DNA from: Candidatus Microgenomates bacterium
Lineage (GTDB): Bacteria; Patescibacteriota; Microgenomatia; UBA8517
Reading direction: 5' to 3'
Length of the DNA stretch: 46,267 nucleotides
Assembly: GCA_016784385.1 (NCBI GenBank)
Contig: JADHUT010000005.1
Location: forward strand, 1-46,267
The position numbers and the translations under genes are program-made. This document shows, in pieces, positions 3-46,267 of this stretch. The notes under the pieces were generated by a model, which saw nothing but the letters and a program-made list of their open reading frames with translations, did not search any database and was not told where the DNA came from. Each line of letters opens with the position of its first letter. Position 1 is the stretch's first letter.

Positions 3-356
3 GTTCTTAAAGAGATTGGTAAACTTTCAAAGACTAACAAGAAGTATTACCAAGACAGTATTGATGTGTATAAACTTTCTCAAAATGCACATGAGACTTA
101 CAGAAAAGCAAACAAAGACAGCAAGAGAAACTTGTTAAAACTTGCATTTGGTGAACTTCTGTTAGATGAAGGAAAACTTCAGTACTCGTACTCTAAAACA
201 TTTGAGTTACTTCAAAAAGCTGTAAGCACAACCAATAGTTCGAAAATACCAGAAAATGAGTTTATGAAGTTAAAAATTTTCGAACAACCCAAAAAGGCCG
301 AAAACGTGGGAGTAACTCAAGGATTTTATCCTCAGAGTTACCTTGTGCGGGAGTGA
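3..356 (+). CDS. C-terminal part of a probable large serine recombinase (5'-truncated by the window edge)
   Basis: The frame is open from base 3 (VLKEIGKLSKTNKKYYQDSIDVYKLSQNAHETYRKANKDSKRNLLKLAFGELLLDEGKL...). The KRxLLxLxFxxLxL tail resembles the end of tRNA-associated serine recombinases, and the stop lies inside the antisense 3' end of tRNA-Asp. The catalytic domain is not visible. Confidence 0.55.
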   Translation, partial: VLKEIGKLSKTNKKYYQDSIDVYKLSQNAHETYRKANKDSKRNLLKLAFGELLLDEGKLQYSYSKTFELLQKAVSTTNSSKIPENEFMKLKIFEQPKKAENVGVTQGFYPQSYLVRE

Positions 357-613
357 CGAGACTCGAACTCGCAACCTCTTCCGTGCAACTTATCCTTCTG
401 TTACCAAAAGGGCTGGACTATCTCATCAACCTAATAAGGTTGCCAGGTATATAGTCTCTACACATTTACGAAATTTAAAAAAATTTCGATTTAGCTCGGG
501 ATTGCCCTTAAAAAAGGGTTTCCCCGAATTAGCCTGGTTTTTCCTCATAACATTACTGTCATGGGCTGCCATATTTGACAGGGAAGCACTCTAACCAATT
601 GAGCTACACCCCC
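348..613 (-). tRNA. tRNA-Asp(GUC), intron-containing; exons 613-578 and 385-348
   Basis: Joined exons give GGGGGTGTAGCTCAATTGGTTAGAGTGCTTCCCTGT^CACGGAAGAGGTTGCGAGTTCGAGTCTCGTCACTCCCG: a 74-nt cloverleaf with anticodon arm CTTCC-CTGTCAC-GGAAG and discriminator G73. No encoded CCA. Confidence 0.95.
386..577 (-). ncRNA. Group I self-splicing intron, 192 nt, no ORF, inserted at anticodon position 35/36
   Basis: P1 CUGU^CA/UGGCAG with a U.G pair at the splice site; P2 CAUGACA-GUAA-UGUUAUG; P3 CCAGG/CCUGG; P4 UUCGGG/CCCGAG; P7 GAGACUA/UAGUCC; P8 CAACCU/AGGUUG; P9 CCUUUUG-GUAA-CAGAAGG; terminal omega-G at 386. Confidence 0.93.
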
Positions 614-694
614 ACGCATTTTTAGTATTTCAAACTACGTTGAATAATTTGCATCAAACAAATAGTCAACCTACAATAGATTATATAACAAATC

Positions 695-2419
695 ATGCTT
701 ACTTCCAAGAACATGACAAACAGGCAAATTGCAGAACTTTTGATTGACGTTGCAGCTGCACATCAACTTGTAGATCCTAAAACATATAAATTTCAAATAA
801 TTGCATATAACCGTGCAGCAAGCTCAGTAGAACATGCCACAAGTGAACTTAAAGACCTTTGGGATGACGGAAAATTAGATAGTGTCCCTGGCATAGGAAA
901 ATCGATTGCAGGCCATTTGAGTGAAATATTTAGTACTGGAAAGTCACGCCATTTCGAACAAATTTCAAAAGGAATTCCTGTGGAAGTCTTTAAACTAATG
1001 GAGTTGCCCGGTATTGGAATTAAAACTGCGATTAAAATGGTCAAAGAAGAATCAAAGACTGAGATAAAAAAGAAACTAGATGAAGTGAATAAGATCCGAA
1101 ATAAAAACAAAAGACATTTATTACCATACGCCCAGAAAATTGCCTCTGAGCTCACCAAGTGGCTTTTAGACGACCTAAACTGCAAAAATGTACAAGTATT
1201 GGGGTCACTGCGTAGAAAAGTTGCCACAATTGGAGATATTGATATTGCGGTAGCTACAAATAACCCAGTAAAAACCATAGAACATTTTGTTAATTTTCCA
1301 AAGTTGCAAAAAATAATTGAAAAGGGTGATAAAACTGCCTCAATCCTGGTTCCCGGGGGAGTTTCTGTAGATCTATTAGTTAGCAGTGTAGATAGCTTTG
1401 GCTCAGCCCTACAGCACTTCACAGGCAGTAAATTCCACAATATTGCTCTTCGTGAATATGCCAACAAACTTGGATATTCGCTGTCTGAATATGGAATAAA
1501 AAAGAAAAAATCAAAAAAGGAAACATCCGCCTCCACTGTAAACAAATTTCGCGACGAGAAGTCCTTTTACAACTTTTTAAAGCTTGACTATATTGAACCG
1601 GAAATCAGGGAAGGGACAGATGAAATTAAAGCGTCCATGAATCACACTTTGCCAAAATTAGTTGAAGTAGGGGACTTAAAAGGGGATTTACATATTCATT
1701 CAAATTATGACATCGAAACAAGCCATGACCTAGGACTTTCCTCCATGAAAGATCTTGTGAAAAAAGCAAATGAGCTTAAATACGAATACTTGGCAATGTC
1801 AGAACACAATCCAAGTAAGTCAAAGCATACTGAAGCCCAAATTGTGGATATTCTAAAAAGAAAGCGTGAAAAGGTAGAACAATTAAATTACTCATTATCT
1901 AAAACAAAAAATAATAGCGTAAAAAAAGTGTTCAATAGCCTCGAAATTGACATAATGCCAGATGGGTTATTACCGGTTTCCGGTGTTGGACTGCAAACTC
2001 TTGATTTTGCAATTGTTTCAGTACACTCCAGTTTTAGACTAAAAAGAAATGAAATGACCAAAAGAGTACTTAGTGCACTCGCCCACCCCAAGGTATTAAT
2101 TTTTGCCCACCCTGTGGCTCGAAAAATTAACCAACGAGAAGGAATTGATCTTAACTGGGAGCAAATTTTTGAATTTTGCGTGAAAAATAATAAGATACTA
2201 GAAATTAATTCAAGTCCTGCAAGGCTTGATCTACCTGATTTACTAGTGAGAGATGCAGTTAACGCTGGAGTTAAAATGTCTATAAATACAGATTCCCACC
2301 ATTTAGACCACATGGATGGTATTGGTAATGGAGTTTCAGTAGCCAGAAGGGGTTGGTGTGAAAAAAAAGACATAATAAATACAATGAGTCTTGAAAAATT
2401 CAAAGAAGTGATACAATAA
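695..2419 (+). CDS. polX: DNA polymerase X with C-terminal PHP domain (start may be ATG 713)
   Basis: HhH motifs (VPGIG, LPGIG); GSLRR...GDIDI catalytic motif; FTGS and SEYG; PHP residues DLHIHS, AHP, NTDSH. Confidence 0.92.
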   Translation: MLTSKNMTNRQIAELLIDVAAAHQLVDPKTYKFQIIAYNRAASSVEHATSELKDLWDDGKLDSVPGIGKSIAGHLSEIFSTGKSRHFEQISKGIPVEVFKLMELPGIGIKTAIKMVKEESKTEIKKKLDEVNKIRNKNKRHLLPYAQKIASELTKWLLDDLNCKNVQVLGSLRRKVATIGDIDIAVATNNPVKTIEHFVNFPKLQKIIEKGDKTASILVPGGVSVDLLVSSVDSFGSALQHFTGSKFHNIALREYANKLGYSLSEYGIKKKKSKKETSASTVNKFRDEKSFYNFLKLDYIEPEIREGTDEIKASMNHTLPKLVEVGDLKGDLHIHSNYDIETSHDLGLSSMKDLVKKANELKYEYLAMSEHNPSKSKHTEAQIVDILKRKREKVEQLNYSLSKTKNNSVKKVFNSLEIDIMPDGLLPVSGVGLQTLDFAIVSVHSSFRLKRNEMTKRVLSALAHPKVLIFAHPVARKINQREGIDLNWEQIFEFCVKNNKILEINSSPARLDLPDLLVRDAVNAGVKMSINTDSHHLDHMDGIGNGVSVARRGWCEKKDIINTMSLEKFKEVIQ

Positions 2420-7553: not shown

Positions 7554-8931
7554 AAACCAAAAAAAATACACACCAGTTATTGGGCTTGAAGTTCATATAG
7601 AACTATCAACTAAATCAAAAATGTTTTGCGGTTGCCCTGCTGATCACTTTGGTAAAAAACCAAATACTCAAACTTGCCCGGTTTGCTTGGGGCTTCCTGG
7701 AGCTTTGCCTGTACCAAATGAACTTGCTATACAAAACTGCGTTAAATTAGGACTTGCCTTAGACTGCAAAATCAACAAATGGAGTAATTTTGACAGAAAA
7801 CACTATTTCTATCCAGATCTTCCTAAGGGCTACCAAATAAGCCAGTATGAAGATCCATTTTGTTATGAAGGGCAATATTTGTTACCAAGCAATACCGACG
7901 GTAGAGACACAGAAAAAAGAATAGGGATAACAAGAGTTCATATGGAAGAGGATACTGCCAAATTGCAACACACCACACTGAATAACCCGTCTGGCGGTGA
8001 AAGCAAAAAAGTATCTTTGGTCGATTTTAATAGAAGCGGTGTTGCTTTAGTAGAACTTGTAACTGAGCCAGACTTTGAGCAAATTGAAGATGTATTAATT
8101 TTCGGAAAAGAACTTCAAACCATTGCTAGATACCTGGGTATTTCTGAAGCTGACATGGAAAAGGGTTCAATGAGACTGGAAGCAAACATCTCGCTTCGAG
8201 AAGAGTCCAGTGACAAAAAAACTCTTCCAAACTACAAAGTAGAACTTAAAAACATTAACTCATACCGCTTTCTAAAAAAAGCAATGCAATATGAGCTGGA
8301 AAGGCAAACCAAACTACTTTTGAAAGGTGAGGTTCCTAGTCAAGAAACAAGAGGTTGGGATGAAGCAAAATCAGTTACTTTTTCCCAAAGATCAAAAGAA
8401 ACTGCAAAAGATTACAGATATTTTCCAGATCCTGATATTCCACCAATTGAATTAACTGACGATCAAATCAAAAAAATTAAATCGCAAATTCCAGAATTAC
8501 CATCCCAAAAGGCCAAGAGGTATAAAAAAGAATTTGATTTTCCTAAAAACTACATAGAGATATTGGTCCAAGATAAACAAAAGTCCCAATACTTTGAAAC
8601 AGCCGCAGCGCTTAAACCGGAACTTGCAAAGCAAATTGCCAGCCTTATGGTTAACAAAAATTTGGACAAAGACTATCCAGAACCAGCAGGATTAATCAAA
8701 AAAATTGTGCAGTTAACAAAAGTTGATTATTCATCCACGGATGACACAACTAGTGCAATTGAAGAAGTAATCAAAAATAATCCTGATGTAGTCAAAAAAT
8801 ATGATGAAGGACAAGGATCAGTAGTTGGATATCTCATAGGCCAAACTCAAAAACTACTCAAAGGAAAAGGTGATCCGAAGAAAATTAGTGACATGTTAAT
8901 AAAAAAACTACAAAAATGGGGCGGAAAATAA
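7546..8931 (+). CDS. gatB: Asp/Glu-tRNA amidotransferase subunit B
   Basis: IGLEVH, CPVCLGLPG, RKHYFYPDLPKGYQISQ, ELKNINS, YRYFPDPD. ATG 7546 overlaps the end of gatA. Confidence 0.96.
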   Translation: MIKNQKKYTPVIGLEVHIELSTKSKMFCGCPADHFGKKPNTQTCPVCLGLPGALPVPNELAIQNCVKLGLALDCKINKWSNFDRKHYFYPDLPKGYQISQYEDPFCYEGQYLLPSNTDGRDTEKRIGITRVHMEEDTAKLQHTTLNNPSGGESKKVSLVDFNRSGVALVELVTEPDFEQIEDVLIFGKELQTIARYLGISEADMEKGSMRLEANISLREESSDKKTLPNYKVELKNINSYRFLKKAMQYELERQTKLLLKGEVPSQETRGWDEAKSVTFSQRSKETAKDYRYFPDPDIPPIELTDDQIKKIKSQIPELPSQKAKRYKKEFDFPKNYIEILVQDKQKSQYFETAAALKPELAKQIASLMVNKNLDKDYPEPAGLIKKIVQLTKVDYSSTDDTTSAIEEVIKNNPDVVKKYDEGQGSVVGYLIGQTQKLLKGKGDPKKISDMLIKKLQKWGGK

Positions 8932-9515
8932 TGGATACATTCGTGTCTAATGAGACTAGCGCTGGCAATAAGTATAGAGGTTTGCCTAGTAAACGTGCCT
9001 TGATGCTTAATAATCGAGAATTAAAAGAAAAATTAGCAAAAGATAGTGTTATGAAGGTCTCCTCAAGGCACGAACTAGAAAAACAGTTTAAGTCAATTGA
9101 AGTAAGCAAGGAACCTGCGGGGCTTTTATTTATAGACATAGACAACTTTAAAGAAGTTAACGATGAGTTTGGACACGGCGTTGGAGACAAAGTGTTGGAA
9201 CTTGTTGGAGAACGTATAATAAATCAAGTTTCAAAAGATATTTTAGTGGGTAGATGGGGAGGAGATGAAATCTTAGTTGTTTTTCCAAAACTTGAAGATG
9301 CATTAGTATTAGAAGAGAGAGCAAATGAGATAAGGAATACGATTAAAAGTAAACCTTTTAAGATGGGAGATGCTGTATTGTTGTCAAGGACGCTGAGTAT
9401 TGGTGCGGCCATAAAAGAAGCAGGAGAAACCACAAAAGATTGGTTAAAAAGAGCGGATGCTTCATTGTATGAAGCAAAAGAGACTGGACGAGACAAGGTT
9501 GTCATGGCAAAATAA
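8931..9515 (+). CDS. Stand-alone GGDEF-domain (diguanylate cyclase-like) protein
   Basis: DIDNFKEVNDEFGHGVGD, RWGGDEI and ADASLYEAKETGRD motifs. TAATG coupling to the gatB stop at 8929-8933; ATG 8916 is an alternative start. Confidence 0.9.
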   Translation: MDTFVSNETSAGNKYRGLPSKRALMLNNRELKEKLAKDSVMKVSSRHELEKQFKSIEVSKEPAGLLFIDIDNFKEVNDEFGHGVGDKVLELVGERIINQVSKDILVGRWGGDEILVVFPKLEDALVLEERANEIRNTIKSKPFKMGDAVLLSRTLSIGAAIKEAGETTKDWLKRADASLYEAKETGRDKVVMAK

Positions 9516-9521
9516 CCATTG

Positions 9522-12500
9522 ATGACTTCTTCTAAATTTACCCACCTTCATGTCCACACAGAATACTCCTTACTTGATGGTCTTTCTAACATAAAAAAGT
9601 TGTTTACTCATGTCAAAAATAATGATATGGACGCAGTTGCCATCACCGACCACGGTGCCATGTATGGAGCAGTTGATTTTTTCAAAGAAGGACAAAAATC
9701 AGGAATAAAACCAATTATTGGATTGGAAGCTTACACAACTGCTTCAATGGAGGAAAAAATTAAAGATAACTACCATTTGACTTTACTGGCTAAAAATTAC
9801 GAAGGATATGTTAATTTAATGAGATTGACTTCTATTGCAAACATGGATGGCTATTATTATCGCCCACGATTCACTAAAGAGATCTTAGAAAAACACAAAA
9901 AGGGAATAATTGTACTGTCAGGTTGTCCTGCTGCAGAAGTACCTCAATACTTAATTAATGGTGAGCTGAAAAAAGCCAAAAAAACTACCCAGTGGTTTCA
10001 AAGTGTGTTTGGTACTGATTACTACATGGAAATACAACGCCACGATTATTCAAATATTATTCCGACTATTTCAAATGAAGAATTGAAAGTTAATTTGCAA
10101 AGAGTTGCAGATAATTCAAAAATTGCTGAAGAAGGTGTAGTTAAACTAAGTCGAGAGTTGGGAATACCACTAGTAGCAACCAATGACGCCCACTATGTAG
10201 AAAAGAGAGATGCCCCTGCACAAGATGCGCTTGTGTGTATTGCTACTGGCAAAAATATTTCAGACATAAAAAGAATGCGCTATATTGATAATCCTGATTT
10301 TTACTTAAAAACTCCTTCTGAAATGGAAGAGCAATTTCCAGACTTTCCAGATGCCTTGGAAAATAGTGTAAAGATAGCCGACAAATGTATCGTAGAAATT
10401 CCACTTGGAAAGTGGTATTTTCCTAAATTTAAACTCCCTAAAGGTAAAACTGATGATGCAGCTTACTTGCGTGAGCTTGTGTATGATCGTATTGCTGACA
10501 GAGTTGGTAAATTAACCAAAGAAGTCAAAGAAAGGGTCGAATACGAGCTAGAAATAATTTGTGGTAAAGGATACGCCGCATATTTTCTAATTGTCATGGA
10601 TATCGTTGATTGGGCAGCTGAAAATGGAATAGTGACAAACACCAGAGGTTCAGCAGCAGGTTCTCTGGTTTCATTTGTGTTAGGAGTTACTACAGTGAAC
10701 CCACTGACATACAACCTGCCGTTTGAGAGGTTTTTAAATCCGTACAGACCATCTCCTCCAGATATTGACTTTGATATTTCTGACAACCGTCGAGAAGATG
10801 TAATTAACTACATGGCCAATAAGTATGGTGTAGAAAAAACTGCTCAAATTTGTACATTTGGTCGAATGCTGGCCCGCGGGGCAGTGCGCGACATGGCAAG
10901 AGTTTTGGGATATGAATATTCAATCGGAGACAAGATATCAAAGTTAATTCCACTTGGTGCTCAGGGCTTTCCAATGACAATACAAAAGGCATTAGATGAA
11001 ACACCTGAACTAAAGCAGTTGTATGACAACGATGCAGATACAAAAAAAATACTTGATTTGTCCCGGGAGGTCGAAGGGTCTGCGAGACACATTTCAGTTC
11101 ATGCTGCAGGACTTGTAATTTCTCCAGGAGAGATTACAAAGTTTACTCCTATTCAAAAAGAACCTAAGGGCAAAAAAACTATCACTCAGTACGAAATGCA
11201 TGCTTGTGAAGATGTTGGCCTTATTAAGTTTGACATACTTGGAATTCGAAACCTGGCAATTTTGGGGTCTGCTATTCAAATTATTAAAGACAGAAGAGGT
11301 AAAACCATAACTCTCCACAACATACCAATAGATGGTAGTAAACATGAGTCTGCAAGAAAAACTTTTGAAATGCTCTCAAGGGGTGAAACTATGGGAACTT
11401 TTCAAATGGGAGGCTCTGGCATGACAAAGTTTTTAAAAGAGCTAAAGCCTGAGCGTGTTGAGGATATTATGGCAATGCTAGCTCTCTACCGCCCAGGCCC
11501 TATTACGGTGATACCTGAATACATTGCAAGAAAAAACAACCCAAAGCTGGTCAAATACTTGGACCCTAGAATGGAGAAATATTTAGATAAAAGCTATGGC
11601 CTTATTGTTTACCAGGACGATTTACTCTTTAGTGCAATTGATCTGGCAGGTTATTCCTGGGAAGAAGCTGATAAATTTAGAAAAGCGGTTGGAAAAAAGA
11701 TTCCTGAGGAAATGGCAGCACAAAAGGAAAAATTTCAAGCTGGAATTGTAGAAAATGGACAAACTAAAAAGTTTGCTGAAGATTTATGGCTTCTTTTTGA
11801 ACCATTCCAATCGTATGGATTTAATAAAGCCCATGCCGCTGCCTATGGAATGGTTGCATACTACACCTCATATCTTAAAGCCAACTACCCCGTAGAGTAC
11901 ATGACAGCACTCCTAACAGCTGAAAGTAATGATTCAGACAAGATAAGCCTGGCTATTAATGAGTGCAGGAAAATGAATATTAAAGTACTTCCCCCTGATA
12001 TAAACCAAAGTGATACTGACTTTACAATAGTAGATGACAAAGATTCTCTAGATAATATGGCTATAAGATTTGGGATATCAGCCATAAAACATGTTGGAGA
12101 AGCTGCAATTGAGGCAATTTTAGAAGCTAGAGAAAAGGAAAATTTTTCAAGTTTAATAGACCTTCTGACCAGATCTGATGGAAGAAGAGTTAATAAAAAA
12201 GTATTAGAAAGCCTAATTAAAGTAGGAGCTCTTTCTGAATTTGGGAAAAGATCACAGTTGCTATCCTCTTTGGACGATTTTAGAGCCAAGATAGTCAAAC
12301 CCAAACACGATAACGGACAAGAGGGGTTATTTTCAGCAGATGTAAATAAAAAAACATCCGGCTTTGTCAGTGACAGTGCACTACTAGACACTACCTTACC
12401 TGAATTTAGTAAAGAGGAACTTGAAAACTTGGAAAGAGAACTACTTGGATTTAGTTTAACTGCAAGACCCTTAGGGGAACTTCTGGGTGATTTAATCTTT

Positions 12501-41511: not shown

Positions 41512-42582
41512 ATGCTAACAATTGCTCAACAAATTGAAGAAATTGAGGCTGTAATCCGAAAAACTCCTCATCACAAGGCTACCAATGCTTTCATTGGCAA
41601 TATGCGAGCTAAAATTTCAAAGTTAAAAGACAAAGAAGCTGTGGCATCTAAAAAAGGTGGGGGAGGGGGAGGGATGGGTTATTCTGTAAAAAAACAAGGT
41701 GATGCAACTATTGCTTTAGTTGGTCCCCCTTCTGCGGGGAAATCAACTCTCATCAACAAAATTACAAACACCAAGAGTAAAGTAGCCGCCTATGCCTTTA
41801 CCACAGTTACAGTAATCCCTGGAATGCTTAAGTACAATGATGCATATATCCAGATCTTGGATATCCCCGGATTAATACAGGGGGCATCAATTGGGAAAGG
41901 GAGGGGGAAAGAAGTTCTTTCTGTTGCAAGGGGGGCAGACCTATTGGTAATTATGACTGATATAAAAAGACCAAAAGCTATAAATAAACTAGTAAATGAG
42001 CTTGAAGGGGCTGGTATTAGGATAAACAAGGTTGAACCAAAAGTAAGAATTGAAAAAATGATGGGTGGGGGAGTATCGGTAACGTCTAATATAAAACAAG
42101 ACTTTGATAATGAAACAATAAAATCTGTTGCTTCTGAGTTTGGATTCAAAAATGGCAATATAGCTTTAAAAGAAAAACTAACAATAGACCAACTAGTAGA
42201 CAGTTTTTCAAGAAGAATAGTATACAAAAAGGCTATTTTTGTAGTCAATAAAGCAGACACAGATATAGAAAAGAAAAACAGTGACTATTTGTATATATCA
42301 GCAGAAAACGGAACTGGAATTGAAAACTTCATTCAAACCATTTGGAATGAACTTGATCTGGTAAAAATCTACCTTGTTAGACGCGATCAAGAACCAAGCC
42401 AAGAGAATCCAATCATAATGAAAAAACACAACACTCTCCAAGATGTTGCAGACAGTATTGGGACTGAATTTGCCTCAGGTAAAAAACTTGCAAAAGTGTG
42501 GGGGAATGGCTCTAAATTTCCAGGACAAGAACTACCGCTGAGCTCAAATGTTGTTGAAGGAATGCAAATCAGGTTTATATAG
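41512..42582 (+). CDS. DRG-family (Obg superfamily) GTPase with TGS domain
   Basis: N-terminal TPHHKAT..IG..RAK.SKL; VKKQGDA.IALVG.PSAGKST; YAFTT; DIPG; NKAD; C-terminal AKVWG..SKFPGQ. Confidence 0.92.
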   Translation: MLTIAQQIEEIEAVIRKTPHHKATNAFIGNMRAKISKLKDKEAVASKKGGGGGGMGYSVKKQGDATIALVGPPSAGKSTLINKITNTKSKVAAYAFTTVTVIPGMLKYNDAYIQILDIPGLIQGASIGKGRGKEVLSVARGADLLVIMTDIKRPKAINKLVNELEGAGIRINKVEPKVRIEKMMGGGVSVTSNIKQDFDNETIKSVASEFGFKNGNIALKEKLTIDQLVDSFSRRIVYKKAIFVVNKADTDIEKKNSDYLYISAENGTGIENFIQTIWNELDLVKIYLVRRDQEPSQENPIIMKKHNTLQDVADSIGTEFASGKKLAKVWGNGSKFPGQELPLSSNVVEGMQIRFI

Positions 42583-42642
42583 CTTCTTCAGCAACTGGTA
42601 ATTATTCTTTTGCCGATGGACAATTATCAATACAAGGTCTGG

Positions 42643-43212
42643 TTAGAACTTTGGCTCGTTTCCAGGGTTCCATTTAATATTACATCCCGAGCTAGGCTTT
42701 TGATTCTTTAATATAGTTTTTTTATTTAAAACAGCATCTATGGCATCTTTTAAATGTTTCCCAGTAGGATGACCTCCTCCTGGACGGGTATCATCAAATT
42801 GGCCACGATAAACTAATTTCTTGTTTTCATCAAATACGTAAAAGTCTGGAGTACAAGCCGCTTGATATAATTTGGCCACATCTTGAGATTTGTCTACCAA
42901 ATAGGGGAAAGAGAAACAATATTTAGCGGCCTGTTGCACCATACCCCCTAGATCATCATCAGGATCATACCTTGGGTCATTGCTATTTATAGCAATGACA
43001 GCAACACTTTTTTTCATATATTTTGAGGCCAGGGACGCAAACTCTCGCTCTAGATGTTTAACGTATGGACAGTGAACACAGATGAAAGCAATGAGATAGG
43101 CCTTAGAATCTTTAAAATCATTTATTGAAACAAATTCACCATTTAAATTAGGTAAAGAAAAATCAGGTGCGGCAGTTCCTAAAGGGAGCATGCTAGATAA
43201 TGTAAGTGACAT
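42643..43212 (-). CDS. Thioredoxin-like AhpC/TSA (PRX-like1) protein
   Basis: APDFSLP, FICVHCPYV, AINSND, A.CTPDF.VFD, YRGQFDD and GCNIKW motifs. Confidence 0.92.
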   Translation of the reverse strand: MSLTLSSMLPLGTAAPDFSLPNLNGEFVSINDFKDSKAYLIAFICVHCPYVKHLEREFASLASKYMKKSVAVIAINSNDPRYDPDDDLGGMVQQAAKYCFSFPYLVDKSQDVAKLYQAACTPDFYVFDENKKLVYRGQFDDTRPGGGHPTGKHLKDAIDAVLNKKTILKNQKPSSGCNIKWNPGNEPKF

Positions 43213-43430
43213 AGTAAACTTATCCTACCATAAAAATTAATCAGTCGATGTTTAACCTACAGATGTCATGGACTTAACTAAAAAGAGAGTTATAAAGAAA
43301 GAGGTTTATTCACGGAATTTTTACAAAGAAGACAAAAAAATAAACAATTAAATTATCCCAGTCTTTTAAGTTTAATATTCAAACGATGTGTACCACATAT
43401 ACCAGTTTATGGGCTGGCACTATTTCTGGC

Positions 43431-43452
43431 CAGAAGTCTCTTTGTGTGATCC
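43431..43452 (+). repeat. 22-bp direct repeat, copy 1 (distal att)
   Basis: CAGAAGTCTCTTTGTGTGATCC, identical to 45272-45293. Confidence 0.92.
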
Positions 43453-43587
43453 TAAGCATACCGAATCCGAACCAGATTATAAATGAACTCATAGACCTAT
43501 TCAAAACTTTCTTACCTGACATGTGTAGCCTTGGCTATACATATACAACATAGGCTCCGTATAGGTATTTGAACCGTCTATTCGTAT

Positions 43588-45057
43588 TTAATTAAACTTT
43601 GCTGTTTCTGGAGGAGGACTAGATTCATCAAGTACATATTTTACTTTACTGTCTGGGTTAACGATTATTTCAGTAGACGGGTAATGTGTCACACCAAGTT
43701 GTCGTAGCTTATTTGCATACTCAACACTAGATGTACACGAGTCCAGTGATTGCATAATCTTTGAAACTGGTTCAGTATTTTCCGTGCCGTATTTAAACCA
43801 TTTATCCATTGTAACGAGTTTAATATGTTCAAAGAGTTCATATGCTTTATAAGTTCCTCTGTCATTATATTCAGGCTCTTCTGCCCATTCACCATCGTCA
43901 CCATATGGATTAAAACGCAATTCTCCATCCTCTTTTTTAACTATTCCACGATAGGTTTTTGGTGTAGACACCATTACTCTTCTATTTCTACCATCTCTTT
44001 TAGCTGTAACCCATTTATCTTCAGTATCTTCTAAACGAAATATCAATTCGTTGTTTTCATTCTTTGTTACATATAATCTTATTTCTCCACTCTCACTACC
44101 AACCCTGTCAGTGGAAAATGGTCGTTTTCCTTCAATAATCTCAACATCTCGGTTATCTCGTAAAATTGAAATTATTTCAATCTCTTTACCTTCTACGTCA
44201 CGGAGTAGGCGATCAAAGAAACCAACTTGTGCAGGATTATTTATTTTCTTTACAGCTTCTTTTGCTTCAGCATATTTTTTCGAACTTAATTCACTTAACT
44301 TACTTACGAGATTTGATTTTATTTGACTGTGTACTTGCCAAATTTTCTCTTTTACAAAGTGTTTTAACAGTTCCTTATCAGAGAATACTTGGGTTGATAA
44401 CTCCGAATTTCTATCTAGGTCTCCAACTACAATGACGTTTCCTACTGATTGAGCCATCATCATTGCACCAAGAAGCCCAACACCGCCACCTTGTATGTCT
44501 TTAGGTACGCGAACTCCCCAACAGCGTTGATCATTTAATGTCATTGTTTCTGGATTGCTTTTCAATAGTTTCATAAGCGTGTAAATATTCTTACGGTAAG
44601 GTTCTGGGTCAGCTGTTTTGTCACCGTCTAATTCTAAAATTCTTGCATTTGAAACAATGCCATTTATCAATGATTGCATTTCTTCTGATTGCTTTATTTC
44701 GTTGTTTTTTTCTTCCGAAATAACACCCAACATAGACAATCGAATCTCATCCTCTTCATCTTTGGATAAAATATCTTTATTTTTCCATTGATTGACTTCC
44801 GCTGTATCTACTGGTGGCGGTGCTGTATTACAAAACATTTCTAAAGCTTCTGGTTGCAAAGAGTCTCCAAATCGCATTTCTCGAAAAGCAAAATCAGTCA
44901 ATGTTTCTTCTGGGCTAATTAAACCACCATCTCTTAAATCTTTCTCTGACAAATGTACATATGATTGACTTGCGAGCATGTCATATATCAATTTTTCTGC
45001 CGATTTACGATATAAATCGTTATTTGGAGGTTCAATATCTACAGATGCTTCTGCCAT
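43588..45057 (-). CDS. Hypothetical 489-aa protein (island cargo)
   Basis: Long acidic ORF; TATAAT 9 nt before the ATG; one Gly-rich hydrophobic stretch (GGGVGLLGAMMMA); no family recognised. Confidence 0.8.
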   Translation of the reverse strand: MAEASVDIEPPNNDLYRKSAEKLIYDMLASQSYVHLSEKDLRDGGLISPEETLTDFAFREMRFGDSLQPEALEMFCNTAPPPVDTAEVNQWKNKDILSKDEEDEIRLSMLGVISEEKNNEIKQSEEMQSLINGIVSNARILELDGDKTADPEPYRKNIYTLMKLLKSNPETMTLNDQRCWGVRVPKDIQGGGVGLLGAMMMAQSVGNVIVVGDLDRNSELSTQVFSDKELLKHFVKEKIWQVHSQIKSNLVSKLSELSSKKYAEAKEAVKKINNPAQVGFFDRLLRDVEGKEIEIISILRDNRDVEIIEGKRPFSTDRVGSESGEIRLYVTKNENNELIFRLEDTEDKWVTAKRDGRNRRVMVSTPKTYRGIVKKEDGELRFNPYGDDGEWAEEPEYNDRGTYKAYELFEHIKLVTMDKWFKYGTENTEPVSKIMQSLDSCTSSVEYANKLRQLGVTHYPSTEIIVNPDSKVKYVLDESSPPPETAKFN

Positions 45058-45271
45058 ACAAATATCATTATAAGCGATATTAGTATAAACACATAGTTTT
45101 TATTAAAGACAATTTGAAATTATAAGATGTAGTTGACGAAAGTTCTTCATATAATAAATTGAAAGTACTGAAGAATACAAAAAAAACGGCTACAGCCGTG
45201 TGGCTGTCGGAAATTTTTGCGATTTAGTTTGCAATTTGAAAAAAACAAAAAAGGAGTTCTCGCCGGCACAG

Positions 45272-45293
45272 CAGAAGTCTCTTTGTGTGATCC
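45272..45293 (+). repeat. 22-bp direct repeat, copy 2 (tRNA-proximal att)
   Basis: Covers the last 6 nt of tRNA-Lys plus 16 nt of 3' trailer. Confidence 0.92.
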
Positions 45294-45359
45294 CAGAAGG
45301 ATTCGAACCTTCGACCTTATCCTTAAGAGGGATCTGCTCTACCACTGAGCTATGGGATC
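45288..45359 (-). tRNA. tRNA-Lys(CUU)
   Basis: GATCCCA-TAGCTCAGTGGTAGAGCA-GATCC-CTCTTAA-GGATA...GAAGGTTCGAATCCTTC-TGGGATC-A. Confidence 0.94.
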
Positions 45360-45378
45360 AAATTGTATCAATTTGGAA

Positions 45379-45411
45379 TCATATGGTTCTCGCAAAGCGA
45401 GGTTCATATGA
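45379..45411. repeat. REP-like imperfect palindrome
   Basis: TCATATG-gtt-CTCGC-aaa-GCGAG-gtt-CATATGA. Confidence 0.6.
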
Positions 45412-45455
45412 GACCTCTTCTGTATTTTATCAAATTTTTTAGATTATTGTATTTG

Positions 45456-45527
45456 TGCGCCTACCAGGAATCGAACCTGGAATTACTCCTTAGAAGGGAG
45501 TTGGTATATCCGTTTACCTATAGGCGC
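45456..45527 (-). tRNA. tRNA-Arg(UCU)
   Basis: GCGCCTA...ACTCC-CTTCTAA-GGAGT...CCAGGTTCGATTCCTGG-TAGGCGC-A. Confidence 0.95.
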
Positions 45528-45587
45528 TTAAAAAGCGTATATATCAGATTTTGCTGTTATGAGCGCATAAAAAAACAGAAAGATAAT

Positions 45588-45598
45588 TGGAGCGGGTA
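45588..45598 (-). repeat. Duplicated 3' end of tRNA-Gly(GCC), including CCA
   Basis: Minus strand TACCCGCTCCA; GAGCGGGTA occurs at both 45590-45598 and 45629-45637. Confidence 0.7.
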
Positions 45599-45629
45599 AG
45601 AAACTTGACCCACTCCTCACTTCGCTCAG

Positions 45630-45700
45630 AGCGGGTAGAGGGAATCGAACCCTCGTATCCTGATTGGCAACCAGGTGTATTACCATTGTACTATACCCGC
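45630..45700 (-). tRNA. tRNA-Gly(GCC)
   Basis: GCGGGTA...CCTGG-TTGCCAA-TCAGG...GAGGGTTCGATTCCCTC-TACCCGC-T. Confidence 0.95.
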
Positions 45701-45746
45701 AAAATACACAAATTATATTACTCAAATATATGACTTTATGCCCTAT

Positions 45747-45822
45747 TGGTGCTGAGAGCAAGAATCGAACTTGCATGGCGTGTTCTTCAGACACGTGTCA
45801 TGACCAACTAGACTATCTCAGC
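45747..45822 (-). tRNA. tRNA-Phe(GAA), the only tRNA here with encoded CCA
   Basis: GCTGAGA...CGTGT-CTGAAGA-ACACG...GCAAGTTCGATTCTTGC-TCTCAGC-ACCA. Confidence 0.94.
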
Positions 45823-45870
45823 GAGTCTTACGAAATGAGACAAGCTACGCTTATCTCAGCATGTACTCAT

Positions 45871-46014
45871 TTATGTCAACAATTTTACTATCAAAAAAGC
45901 AATTCCAATTAAAAACATTGCTAATATAATTTTTCCAAAAAACTTTAATTCTGGAACTGTTATAAACGATGTCCAAACTTTTTTTAAAATTTGCTTTACT
46001 TGACCATCTTCCAT
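45871..46014 (-). CDS. Small membrane protein, 47 aa (not in ORF track)
   Basis: MEDGQVKQILKKVWTSFITVPELKFFGKIILAMFLIGIAFLIVKLLT; amphipathic N-terminus plus a TM helix; fills most of the Val-Phe spacer. Confidence 0.55.
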   Translation of the reverse strand: MEDGQVKQILKKVWTSFITVPELKFFGKIILAMFLIGIAFLIVKLLT

Positions 46015-46015
46015 G

Positions 46016-46088
46016 TGCTCGCTGAGGGGCTCGAACCCCCGACCTTTCGGATGTAAACCGAGCGCTCTACCAACTGAGCTAAGCGAGC
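46016..46088 (-). tRNA. tRNA-Val(UAC)
   Basis: GCTCGCT-TAGCTCAGTTGGTAGAGCG-CTCGG-TTTACAT-CCGAA...GGGGGTTCGAGCCCCTC-AGCGAGC-A. Confidence 0.95.
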
Positions 46089-46267
46089 ATCTATACTATT
46101 TTAACACATTTATACACAATTTCAGATATGTGCTGTAATTATACACTTCGCGCGAACCTACTTTGAACAGAACTAAGGAAGCCGCCCCGCCACCGCTCGC
46201 TGACGCTCGCCACCCCACAAAAAAGTTTTCTTATCAATTTTTTATTTTGCGCGCGACCGATTTTTCC

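Follow-up and report, generated by a model that had tools for sequence, protein, structure and literature searches.

A recombinase-less one-gene cassette at a tRNA-Lys gene, probably derived from a tRNA-targeting large serine recombinase family

The DNA analysed here (the window) is an entire contig of 46,267 bases (JADHUT010000005.1, contig C22 in our numbering) with a GC content of about 35%, from a Candidatus Microgenomates genome of 695,930 bases in 31 contigs that is rated 95.7% complete and has the look of a candidate phyla radiation (CPR) bacterium. The subject of this report is a small cassette in it that lies between two copies of a 22-nt direct repeat, abuts a tRNA-Lys gene and probably derives from a large serine recombinase (LSR) element family. 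The tRNA-Lys(CTT) is intact and lies on the minus strand, at 45287-45359 according to ARAGORN and at 45288-45359 according to Rfam (72.8 bits), and its T-arm, GGTTCGAATCC, would form the B-type left half-site of an attL junction. The proximal repeat copy (45272-45293) overlaps the end of this gene, and from the two sets of coordinates it follows that 6-7 nt of the repeat are the tRNA tip, the putative crossover core, and 15-16 nt are trailer, with the P'-arm-like start ACAAAGAG. Inside the cassette, the first 148 nt form segment H (45124-45271, minus strand), and they are followed by a 489-aa open reading frame (ORF; 43588-45057, minus strand) that is co-directional with tRNA-Lys and is the single gene in the 1.84 kb between the repeat copies. 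A T-arm mimic (43453-43473, minus strand), which starts with GGTTCGGATTC on that strand and may be the P-type left half-site of the distal site, precedes the distal repeat copy (43431-43452), and outside the cassette lies an arm named X_old (43378-43430, minus strand), which would be an older P'-type arm, and then an AhpC/TSA gene.

An earlier reading made from the letters of the window alone (the sequence-only reading) had described a perfect repeat around one 489-aa gene, with most of the repeat in the trailer, unlike the tRNA-end duplications of tyrosine integrases, and these points were borne out. The copies at 43431-43452 and 45272-45293 are exact, and they are the only two in the 695,930 bases of the genome when up to three mismatches are allowed, both of them forward and none reversed. 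That such a repeat arose by chance, by local tandem duplication or by misassembly is hardly credible, and apart from the shortness of the repeat nothing speaks for it: none of 100 dinucleotide-preserving shuffles of the window yielded any match, the repeat abuts the tRNA end, and Logan contigs of 20,999 nt (run X1) and 28,201 nt (run X4), either run being possibly the source sample, span both copies independently with no differences, the join across both repeats being not specific to one assembly. The 200-nt flanks on the trailer side of the two copies align no better than shuffles and the identity ends sharply, which excludes a simple tandem duplication and also means that segment H is not a diverged X arm of the kind described below. 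Tyrosine-integrase islands are usually recognised by direct repeats at tRNA 3' ends, and the genome holds three tyrosine-recombinase loci, so a remnant of such an island, or a resident tyrosine recombinase acting in trans, had to be weighed as well. This origin is very improbable, given that only 6-7 of the 22 nt of the repeat belong to the tRNA, that the flanks fit arms and spacing of the LSR type, and that the window contains no tyrosine recombinase, all three loci being on other contigs; as a known class, the tyrosine-integrase tRNA genomic island was rejected on the first of these grounds together with the lack of an integrase gene in the window.

The sequence-only reading had further proposed that the repeat marks the att boundary of a serine-recombinase element, and the rest of the genome agrees with it, since four complete LSR genes were found there by a Pfam Resolvase search (contigs C13, C18, C23 and C25), along with partial ones, and the sites of the window fit the geometry of this family. 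The LSR of C13 is an ORF of 518 aa (66-1622, minus strand) with the domains Resolvase (E 8.6e-20), Recombinase (9.4e-14) and Zn_ribbon_recom (2.8e-11), and its final codons pass antisense through tRNA-Gln (55-126). A tblastn search revealed full paralogues on three other contigs (C25, C23 and C18; about 50% identity) as well as a partial paralogue where C13 ends. A convergent tRNA, its 3' end directly adjoining the LSR, is present at C13 (Gln-CTG), C23 (Ile-TAT), C25 (Leu-TAG) and, for the partial gene, the C13 end (Glu-CTC); the LSR of C18 abuts a T-arm-like fragment, at which no tRNA was called by ARAGORN. LSR homologues with E ≤ 1e-20 were detected in 24 of the 41 genomes searched, our own genome counted, and a tRNA was present in 21 of the 30 loci fetched. 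In 12 of 14 loci examined, the LSR ORF extends 13-371 nt into the tRNA or past it; the other two loci hold genes broken by a stop codon. As the ORF thus crosses the recombination site, integration would exchange the tail of the recombinase. Alignments of the own-genome paralogues stop at residue 471-496 of 518, with the tails beyond about residue 471 unaligned. Empty sites of LSR elements exist among relatives: tRNA-Pro(TGG) and tRNA-Gly(TCC) are 30 nt apart in the window versus 3.9 kb, with an element between them, in genome G033, and the gap between Leu(GAG) and Val(TAC) holds an element in G003 and is empty in G021. No description of a tRNA-targeting LSR family was found in the literature searched, most subscription journals being outside the reach of that search.

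The plan of these elements was obtained from self-comparison of the own loci and of nine loci of relatives, followed by base-by-base reading, and it comprises three sites. Site a1 consists of the tRNA T-arm, a short core and an arm X of about 100 nt, the antisense of which encodes the recombinase tail; site a2, just upstream of the recombinase start, carries an inverted T-arm mimic (T*), preceded by a GC-rich stretch named Z, then core and X; and site a3, beyond a cargo arc of 1.2-10 kb, carries Z, T* and core, after which unrelated host DNA begins. The sequence common to a1 and a3 amounts to 4-5 nt in all seven three-site elements (C13 and C23 of the own genome; loci L046, L049, L050, L051 and L052), which fits a serine-type crossover, and the arrangement fits an assignment of a1 to attL, of a3 to attR and of a2 to a complete spare attP in inverted orientation. 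Inverted repeats of 76-116 nt flank every complete LSR gene because a full inverted attP lies upstream of each; they are 85-89% identical at C13 (120-234 and 1677-1792) and 96-100% identical at C23 (33076-33172 and 34609-34706), C25 (1-109 and 1557-1665) and C18 (12698-12773 and 14292-14367). Positions 1-139 of C13 and 1-139 of C19 overlap by 139 nt as reverse complements and end 13 nt past tRNA-Gln, within the LSR arm; this overlap is an assembly fork with a third branch outside the bin, which could represent an empty site or a variant element.

Position of the T-arm motif is what distinguishes the two kinds of site in this family. In the family elements the GTTCGA-like motif of the real T-arm ends 9-13 nt ahead of the repeat start and that of T* 14-17 nt ahead of it, the outward shift of T* being +4 or +5 in seven of seven LSR elements and +4 in a small cassette on contig C7. 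The window shows the same shift. At the proximal site, which runs in the order T-arm, 22-nt repeat, segment H, the GTTCGA motif of the real T-arm of tRNA-Lys stops 9 nt short of the repeat, and at the distal site the GTTCGG motif of the mimic stops 14 nt short of it, a shift of +5 relative to tRNA-Lys. The T-arm antisense mimic that the sequence-only reading had placed behind the left copy is indeed there, as GAATCCGAACC at 43463-43473, and matches the T-arm in 9 of 11 positions. For the LI integrase of Listeria, a published account places the motif of the zinc-ribbon domain (ZD) closer to the centre in attB, by 5 bp compared with attP (PMC3783163). Because the shift of 4-5 nt matches this difference, we infer by analogy that the T-arm may act as a B-type half-site and T* as a P-type half-site.

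The DNA outside the distal copy points in the same direction. When 75 nt were counted from 43452 on the X_old side, so that the first 22 nt are the repeat, an ungapped comparison gave 45 identical positions with the arm that follows tRNA-Glu at the end of C13 and 41 with the C18 arm, against 23.4 ± 2.6 in random genome windows, where a value of at least 45 was reached in one of 20,000 windows and in none of 20,000 shuffles. Among the 39 tRNA trailers of the genome scored alike, five reached at least 38, namely those of the four recombinase-linked tRNAs and of tRNA-Trp on C7, and the other 34 scored 24-35. This identity to LSR arms, beyond that of the control trailers, marks the flank by its sequence as an LSR-type P' arm, the probable scar of an earlier element that now precedes the AhpC/TSA gene, and the earlier proposal that the target derives from a previous insertion is thereby upheld. 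The tRNA-proximal copy retains no more of the arm than its first 16 nt. The start of the trailer part of the repeat, ACAAAG(G/A)G, is also found in the arms of the C18 and C25 LSR elements, and both the C18 LSR site and the window site carry GTTCGA-N13-CACACAAAG(G/A)G. The 22-nt identity itself would then represent a short core plus a right half-site common to two elements of the same specificity. An alternative view of the arms, as structured RNA or covarying hairpins, was dropped since their folding does not exceed that of shuffles (z 0.26 and 1.83).

Segment H ties the interior of the cassette to the same family, with 45124-45249 matching C13:1941-2060 at 78.9% identity over 128 columns (E 8e-20), and in C13 the homologous DNA is the start of the cargo arc, directly beyond Z. 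The segment contains a terminator-like hairpin with a T8 run (45186-45207) just past tRNA-Lys, which, as far as its sequence can tell, would terminate the tRNA-Lys transcript. The only ORF of at least 100 aa in the cassette is the 489-aa gene, which has no Resolvase, Recombinase or Zn-ribbon domain. Of the promoter claimed for this gene, a TATAAT at 9-14 nt upstream of the ATG is present, but a simple promoter scan gave no -35/-10 pair.

The peptide QKSLCVI, which the sequence-only reading found in register in both repeat copies, does occur in two plus-strand ORFs, of 55 aa (43386-43553) and 80 aa (45200-45442), but it carries no significance for the locus, as identical DNA necessarily reads identically and neither ORF matches a Pfam family. 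It is highly improbable that these ORFs are relics of a functional recombinase C-terminus with the frame under selection. What favours such relics is that the ORFs of family LSRs cross the site and that, in the same frame, SLCV also appears in the C18 LSR where its tail spans the arm of that element, giving the sole weak protein match at the locus (45260-45346, 44.8% over 29 aa, E 0.009); this match reflects the antisense T-arm and the shared ACAAAG word, in the frame that LSR ORFs use. Nothing recombinase-like lies upstream of either short ORF, and the family tails beyond residue 471 or so are not alignable even among the paralogues of one genome. The proposal that attP lies within the 3' end of a recombinase gene, with a swap of the C-terminus, therefore describes the family, in which the ORF crosses the site in the loci counted above, but not this locus, where neither a recombinase nor a remnant of one is found. 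The motif GCYGGCAC, said to precede both copies, is present at 43414-43421 and 45262-45269, but at differing offsets.

Taken together, we consider, at a rough probability of 0.7, that the 1.84-kb segment descends from the tRNA-targeting LSR family as a form without a recombinase and sits stacked on the scar of an older element. Of the traits of a complete element it shows the junction at the tRNA tip, the shift of the T-arm mimic and the P' arm, and lacks the LSR gene and the inverted attP; it agrees with a recombinase-less att-flanked derivative in having att-type sites on both sides, no recombinase, and autonomous relatives in the genome. Several results weigh against this origin. A tblastn search of 43000-45450 with 10 LSRs found no LSR gene body, and no recombinase or remnant lies between or beside the copies, so the loss of the recombinase gene is deduced, not seen. 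The inverted attP, a hallmark of the family, is missing too, with no reverse 22-mer in the whole genome at up to three mismatches and no matching inverted repeat in 42000-46267. An nhmmer profile of T* recovered five training sites of the own genome and the weak C7 site but missed the mimic of the window at E ≤ 10, and assignment of the mimic consequently rests on spacing and the T-arm match. The 22-nt block shared by the two sites is far longer than the 4-5 nt common to attL and attR in complete elements, and insertion into an older attL-type site would be a non-canonical LSR reaction (PMC3783163). Finally, the GC content of the cassette equals that of its flanks, the contigs of runs X1 and X4 are identical to the window over about 5 kb, and the genomes compared include no relative of the same genus to show an empty site.

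The question of mobility was addressed with assembled contigs of runs X1, X4, X10 and X12, which come from four studies; they show the same arrangement, with no joint skipping 43453-45293 and no circle joint, and since contigs drop rare variants, this absence neither supports nor excludes excision. The joints that were listed in the run contigs are cross-matches between tRNA genes and were discarded. Most likely, the cassette is today a fixed remnant, movable only if a matching LSR acts on it in trans. The alternative is an active non-autonomous cassette, comparable to cis-mobilizable elements (CIMEs) or pseudo-staphylococcal cassette chromosome (pseudo-SCC) elements, which a resident LSR paralogue excises and inserts in trans with tRNA ends as docks, as in the integron-like system suggested by the sequence-only reading; we hold this to be rather unlikely. 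It would account for the complete-looking pair of sites with correct B/P geometry, and for the retention of a right arm that extends some 19-20 nt from the probable crossover point, a length close to that of an LSR half-site (PMC3783163). The motif spacing and arm start shared by the C18 LSR site and the window site also favour it, as do the presence of two one-gene cassettes in one 0.7-Mb genome, that at tRNA-Trp being trailed by a decayed second copy, and the position of a cargo homologue beside another tRNA-end scar in genome G230. Against it, no LSR lies at tRNA-Lys in the own genome, 95.7% complete as it is, and neither the 22-mer nor its 18-nt part recurs in the other DNA searched: the 22-mer has no match in JGI metagenome contigs or, at up to three mismatches, in any of 138 other genomes of the order, and the 18-nt part has none in IMG/VR.

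The second of these cassettes emerged when the ends of all 40 tRNAs were checked for direct repeats; those of at least 20 nt were found at two tRNAs only, tRNA-Lys and tRNA-Trp (C7, 20 nt). At C7:22151-22969, tRNA-Trp is followed by a recombinase-less cassette with a 20-nt perfect repeat, a coiled-coil-like ORF of 76 aa that is not an LSR, and Z and T* (+4) ahead of the distal copy. The arms behind the two repeat copies are 72% identical over 172 columns, the second arm and ORF end being decayed, and the sequence suggests that one small cassette is present there twice, in a stack.

The cargo protein of the tRNA-Lys cassette could not be placed in a known family. The 489-aa protein has no match in Pfam, PHROGs or PADLOC, none of 30 members of its family carries a Pfam domain, and a search with PDB sequence profiles gave nothing below E 0.1. 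A word index returned three homologues (50, 50 and 39% identity) and a full HMMER search 36 cluster representatives, mostly of about 490 aa. The AlphaFold2 model has a predicted local distance difference test score (pLDDT) of 85.3 and a predicted template modelling score (pTM) of 0.75, and no fold match was obtained for it, the best Foldseek values being E 0.17 (PDB) and 0.081 (BFVD), the best VIA-align Z being 4.6, and ESM Atlas giving no usable hit; the predicted fold is thus a confident one in modelling terms, with no match among solved or viral predicted structures. No homologue is present in 40 relatives and none was confirmed in metagenome contigs, while a profile search found one in a single genome (G230) out of 400 others of the class. 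In that genome, at L061 (G230:C2, about 11430-11650), the end of tRNA-Pro(CGG) recurs as an 18-nt direct repeat, the copies being about 105 nt apart with a GC-rich stretch between them, and the cargo homologue, of 490 aa, lies just past the repeat, 133 nt from the 3' end of tRNA-Pro(CGG). The 39% homologue lies at 7974-9464 (L058) of a 166-kb contig from a metagenome-assembled genome labelled Gammaproteobacteria; eight neighbouring ORFs were scanned there and contain no recombinase, no tRNA was found, and most neighbours have no Pfam family, MreB and a C-methyltransferase domain being nearby. Either the cargo family extends beyond CPR bacteria or the L058 contig is misbinned.

The space that separates tRNA-Lys from a convergent GTPase gene is an insertion hotspot: in G003 it measures about 70 nt and contains a duplicated T-arm fragment, in G004 it measures 6.7 kb and holds a broken LSR element, and here it measures 2.7 kb. 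The G004 element (L053, G004:C19, 1836-4332) has an LSR at tRNA-Lys(CTT) that is broken by a TAA stop, and its upstream inverted site bears the core and arm of a tRNA-Ile-type element, like that of C23, and not of a tRNA-Lys element; this mismatch means that the two sites flanking an LSR can differ in specificity. In G003, at L048 (G003:C14, 9648-9721), ARAGORN called a tRNA with anticodon CTA, labelled Pyl, at the place taken by tRNA-Arg(TCT) in the window and in G021. The 3' part of this tRNA is similar to tRNA-Arg(TCG), and the call may represent either a suppressor-like tRNA or an error.

Three further junctions had been named in the window by the sequence-only reading, and two of them, at 3-356 and near 46128, are ends of LSR elements, but the one at 45588, in the trailer of tRNA-Gly(GCC), is not LSR-like (27/75). 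At the left, the contig start truncates a divergent LSR gene, of which the 3' end remains at 3-353 (plus strand, C-terminal 117 aa). This fragment is 31% identical (E 2.9e-9) to the C-terminal region of an LSR frame of 548 aa in G002, and its stop lies at the tip of an intron-bearing tRNA. This tRNA, at 350-665 on the minus strand, is split by a group I intron (RF00028, 95.5 bits, 394-665), was not called by ARAGORN, and has a paralogue at the start of C23 (14-266; 78% identity over 257 columns). At the right, 46089-46267 (minus strand), upstream of tRNA-Val, is the attR-type end of another LSR element, with Z, the T-arm mimic GGTTCGCGCG and the core GCAC. Read from 46267 to 46089, it matches the tip of tRNA-Leu(GAG), the core and an X-like arm at the end of C25, where its attL partner would probably be found. 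The part at 46130-46267 is GC-rich Z, similar to the DNA upstream of LSRs in G033 and G025, and has a contig depth of 174-617 against 34-45 elsewhere on the contig (4-14 times; runs X1 and X4); it is probably common to several elements or organisms, hence the contig end at this point.

Compared with known systems, the parent elements resemble the large serine integrases of Listeria A118 (LI), phiC31, Bxb1 and SPbeta in having Resolvase, Recombinase and Zn-ribbon proteins and a very short crossover core, and in that the site on the element has its motif 4-5 bp more outward than the site in the host, as in attP compared with attB (PMC3783163). Unlike those integrases, the family described here targets the extreme 3' end of tRNAs, its ORF crosses attL into the tRNA, an inverted spare attP is kept, and the unit in the window is without any recombinase. 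Recombinase-less derivatives are known as CIMEs, formed by accretion at the sites of ICESt1 and ICESt3, and as ccr-less SCC-like cassettes at rlmH. The tRNA-Lys cassette shares with them att-type sites on both sides, absence of a recombinase, stacking on a scar and autonomous relatives in the genome, and differs in its LSR-type sites at a tRNA tip, its single gene and its size of 1.8 kb, and in that mobilisation in trans is here only hypothetical. Archaeal integrases of the SSV1 type are tyrosine recombinases with attP inside the int gene and a tRNA target, the gene being split in two on integration. The LSR family is like them in that the recombination site lies within the recombinase gene, a tRNA is targeted and integration alters the gene, but its recombinase is of the serine type, and no more than the non-conserved tail would be exchanged. 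Integron cassettes are likewise small, often single-gene, without a recombinase of their own and docked at a fixed site; an integron cassette proper (IntI/attI/attC) was rejected, because the tyrosine-recombinase loci are on other contigs and the sites are a direct repeat without significant folding and of serine type.

For the origin of the cassette from an LSR element, the following course may be envisaged. The zinc-ribbon domain of an LSR would have bound the GTTCGA motif of the T-arm and that of the mimic, strand exchange would have taken place within GGATCAC at the tRNA tip, with the tRNA 3' end rebuilt, and the element would have been placed between tRNA-Lys and the scar of the older element by tandem accretion. 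In such a course the 22-nt block would be the crossover core plus about 16 nt of the right half-site of the new and the old element. The recombinase arc and the inverted attP might have been deleted later, or might already have been absent at insertion, and what would be left over is a tRNA terminator, the 489-aa gene as a self-standing unit and a pair of att-type sites.

A wider scheme may also be considered, though we give it only a small chance: a two-tier system in which autonomous LSR elements coexist with minimal one-gene cassettes, each with a pair of B and P half-sites, that resident LSR paralogues shuffle in trans at tRNA docks. The enzyme acting in trans would perhaps be an LSR of the C18 type, whose site shares GTTCGA-N13-CACACAAAGRG. 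If true, genomes of about 0.7 Mb would possess a counterpart, based on serine recombinases, to the traffic of integron or SCC cassettes.

How tiny CPR genomes gain genes is poorly known, and the single 0.7-Mb genome studied here carries at least seven tRNA-linked LSR loci or scars. Recombinase-less one-gene units persist in it at LSR-type tRNA sites, with recombination sites that look intact. The outward shift of the T-arm mimic by 4-5 nt provides a simple rule that separates host-type from element-type half-sites in this LSR family, and it would tie the T-arm of the tRNA to the recognition motif of the serine-integrase zinc ribbon. If the cassettes do move in trans, LSRs and short sites at tRNA tips would constitute a natural cassette-exchange system.

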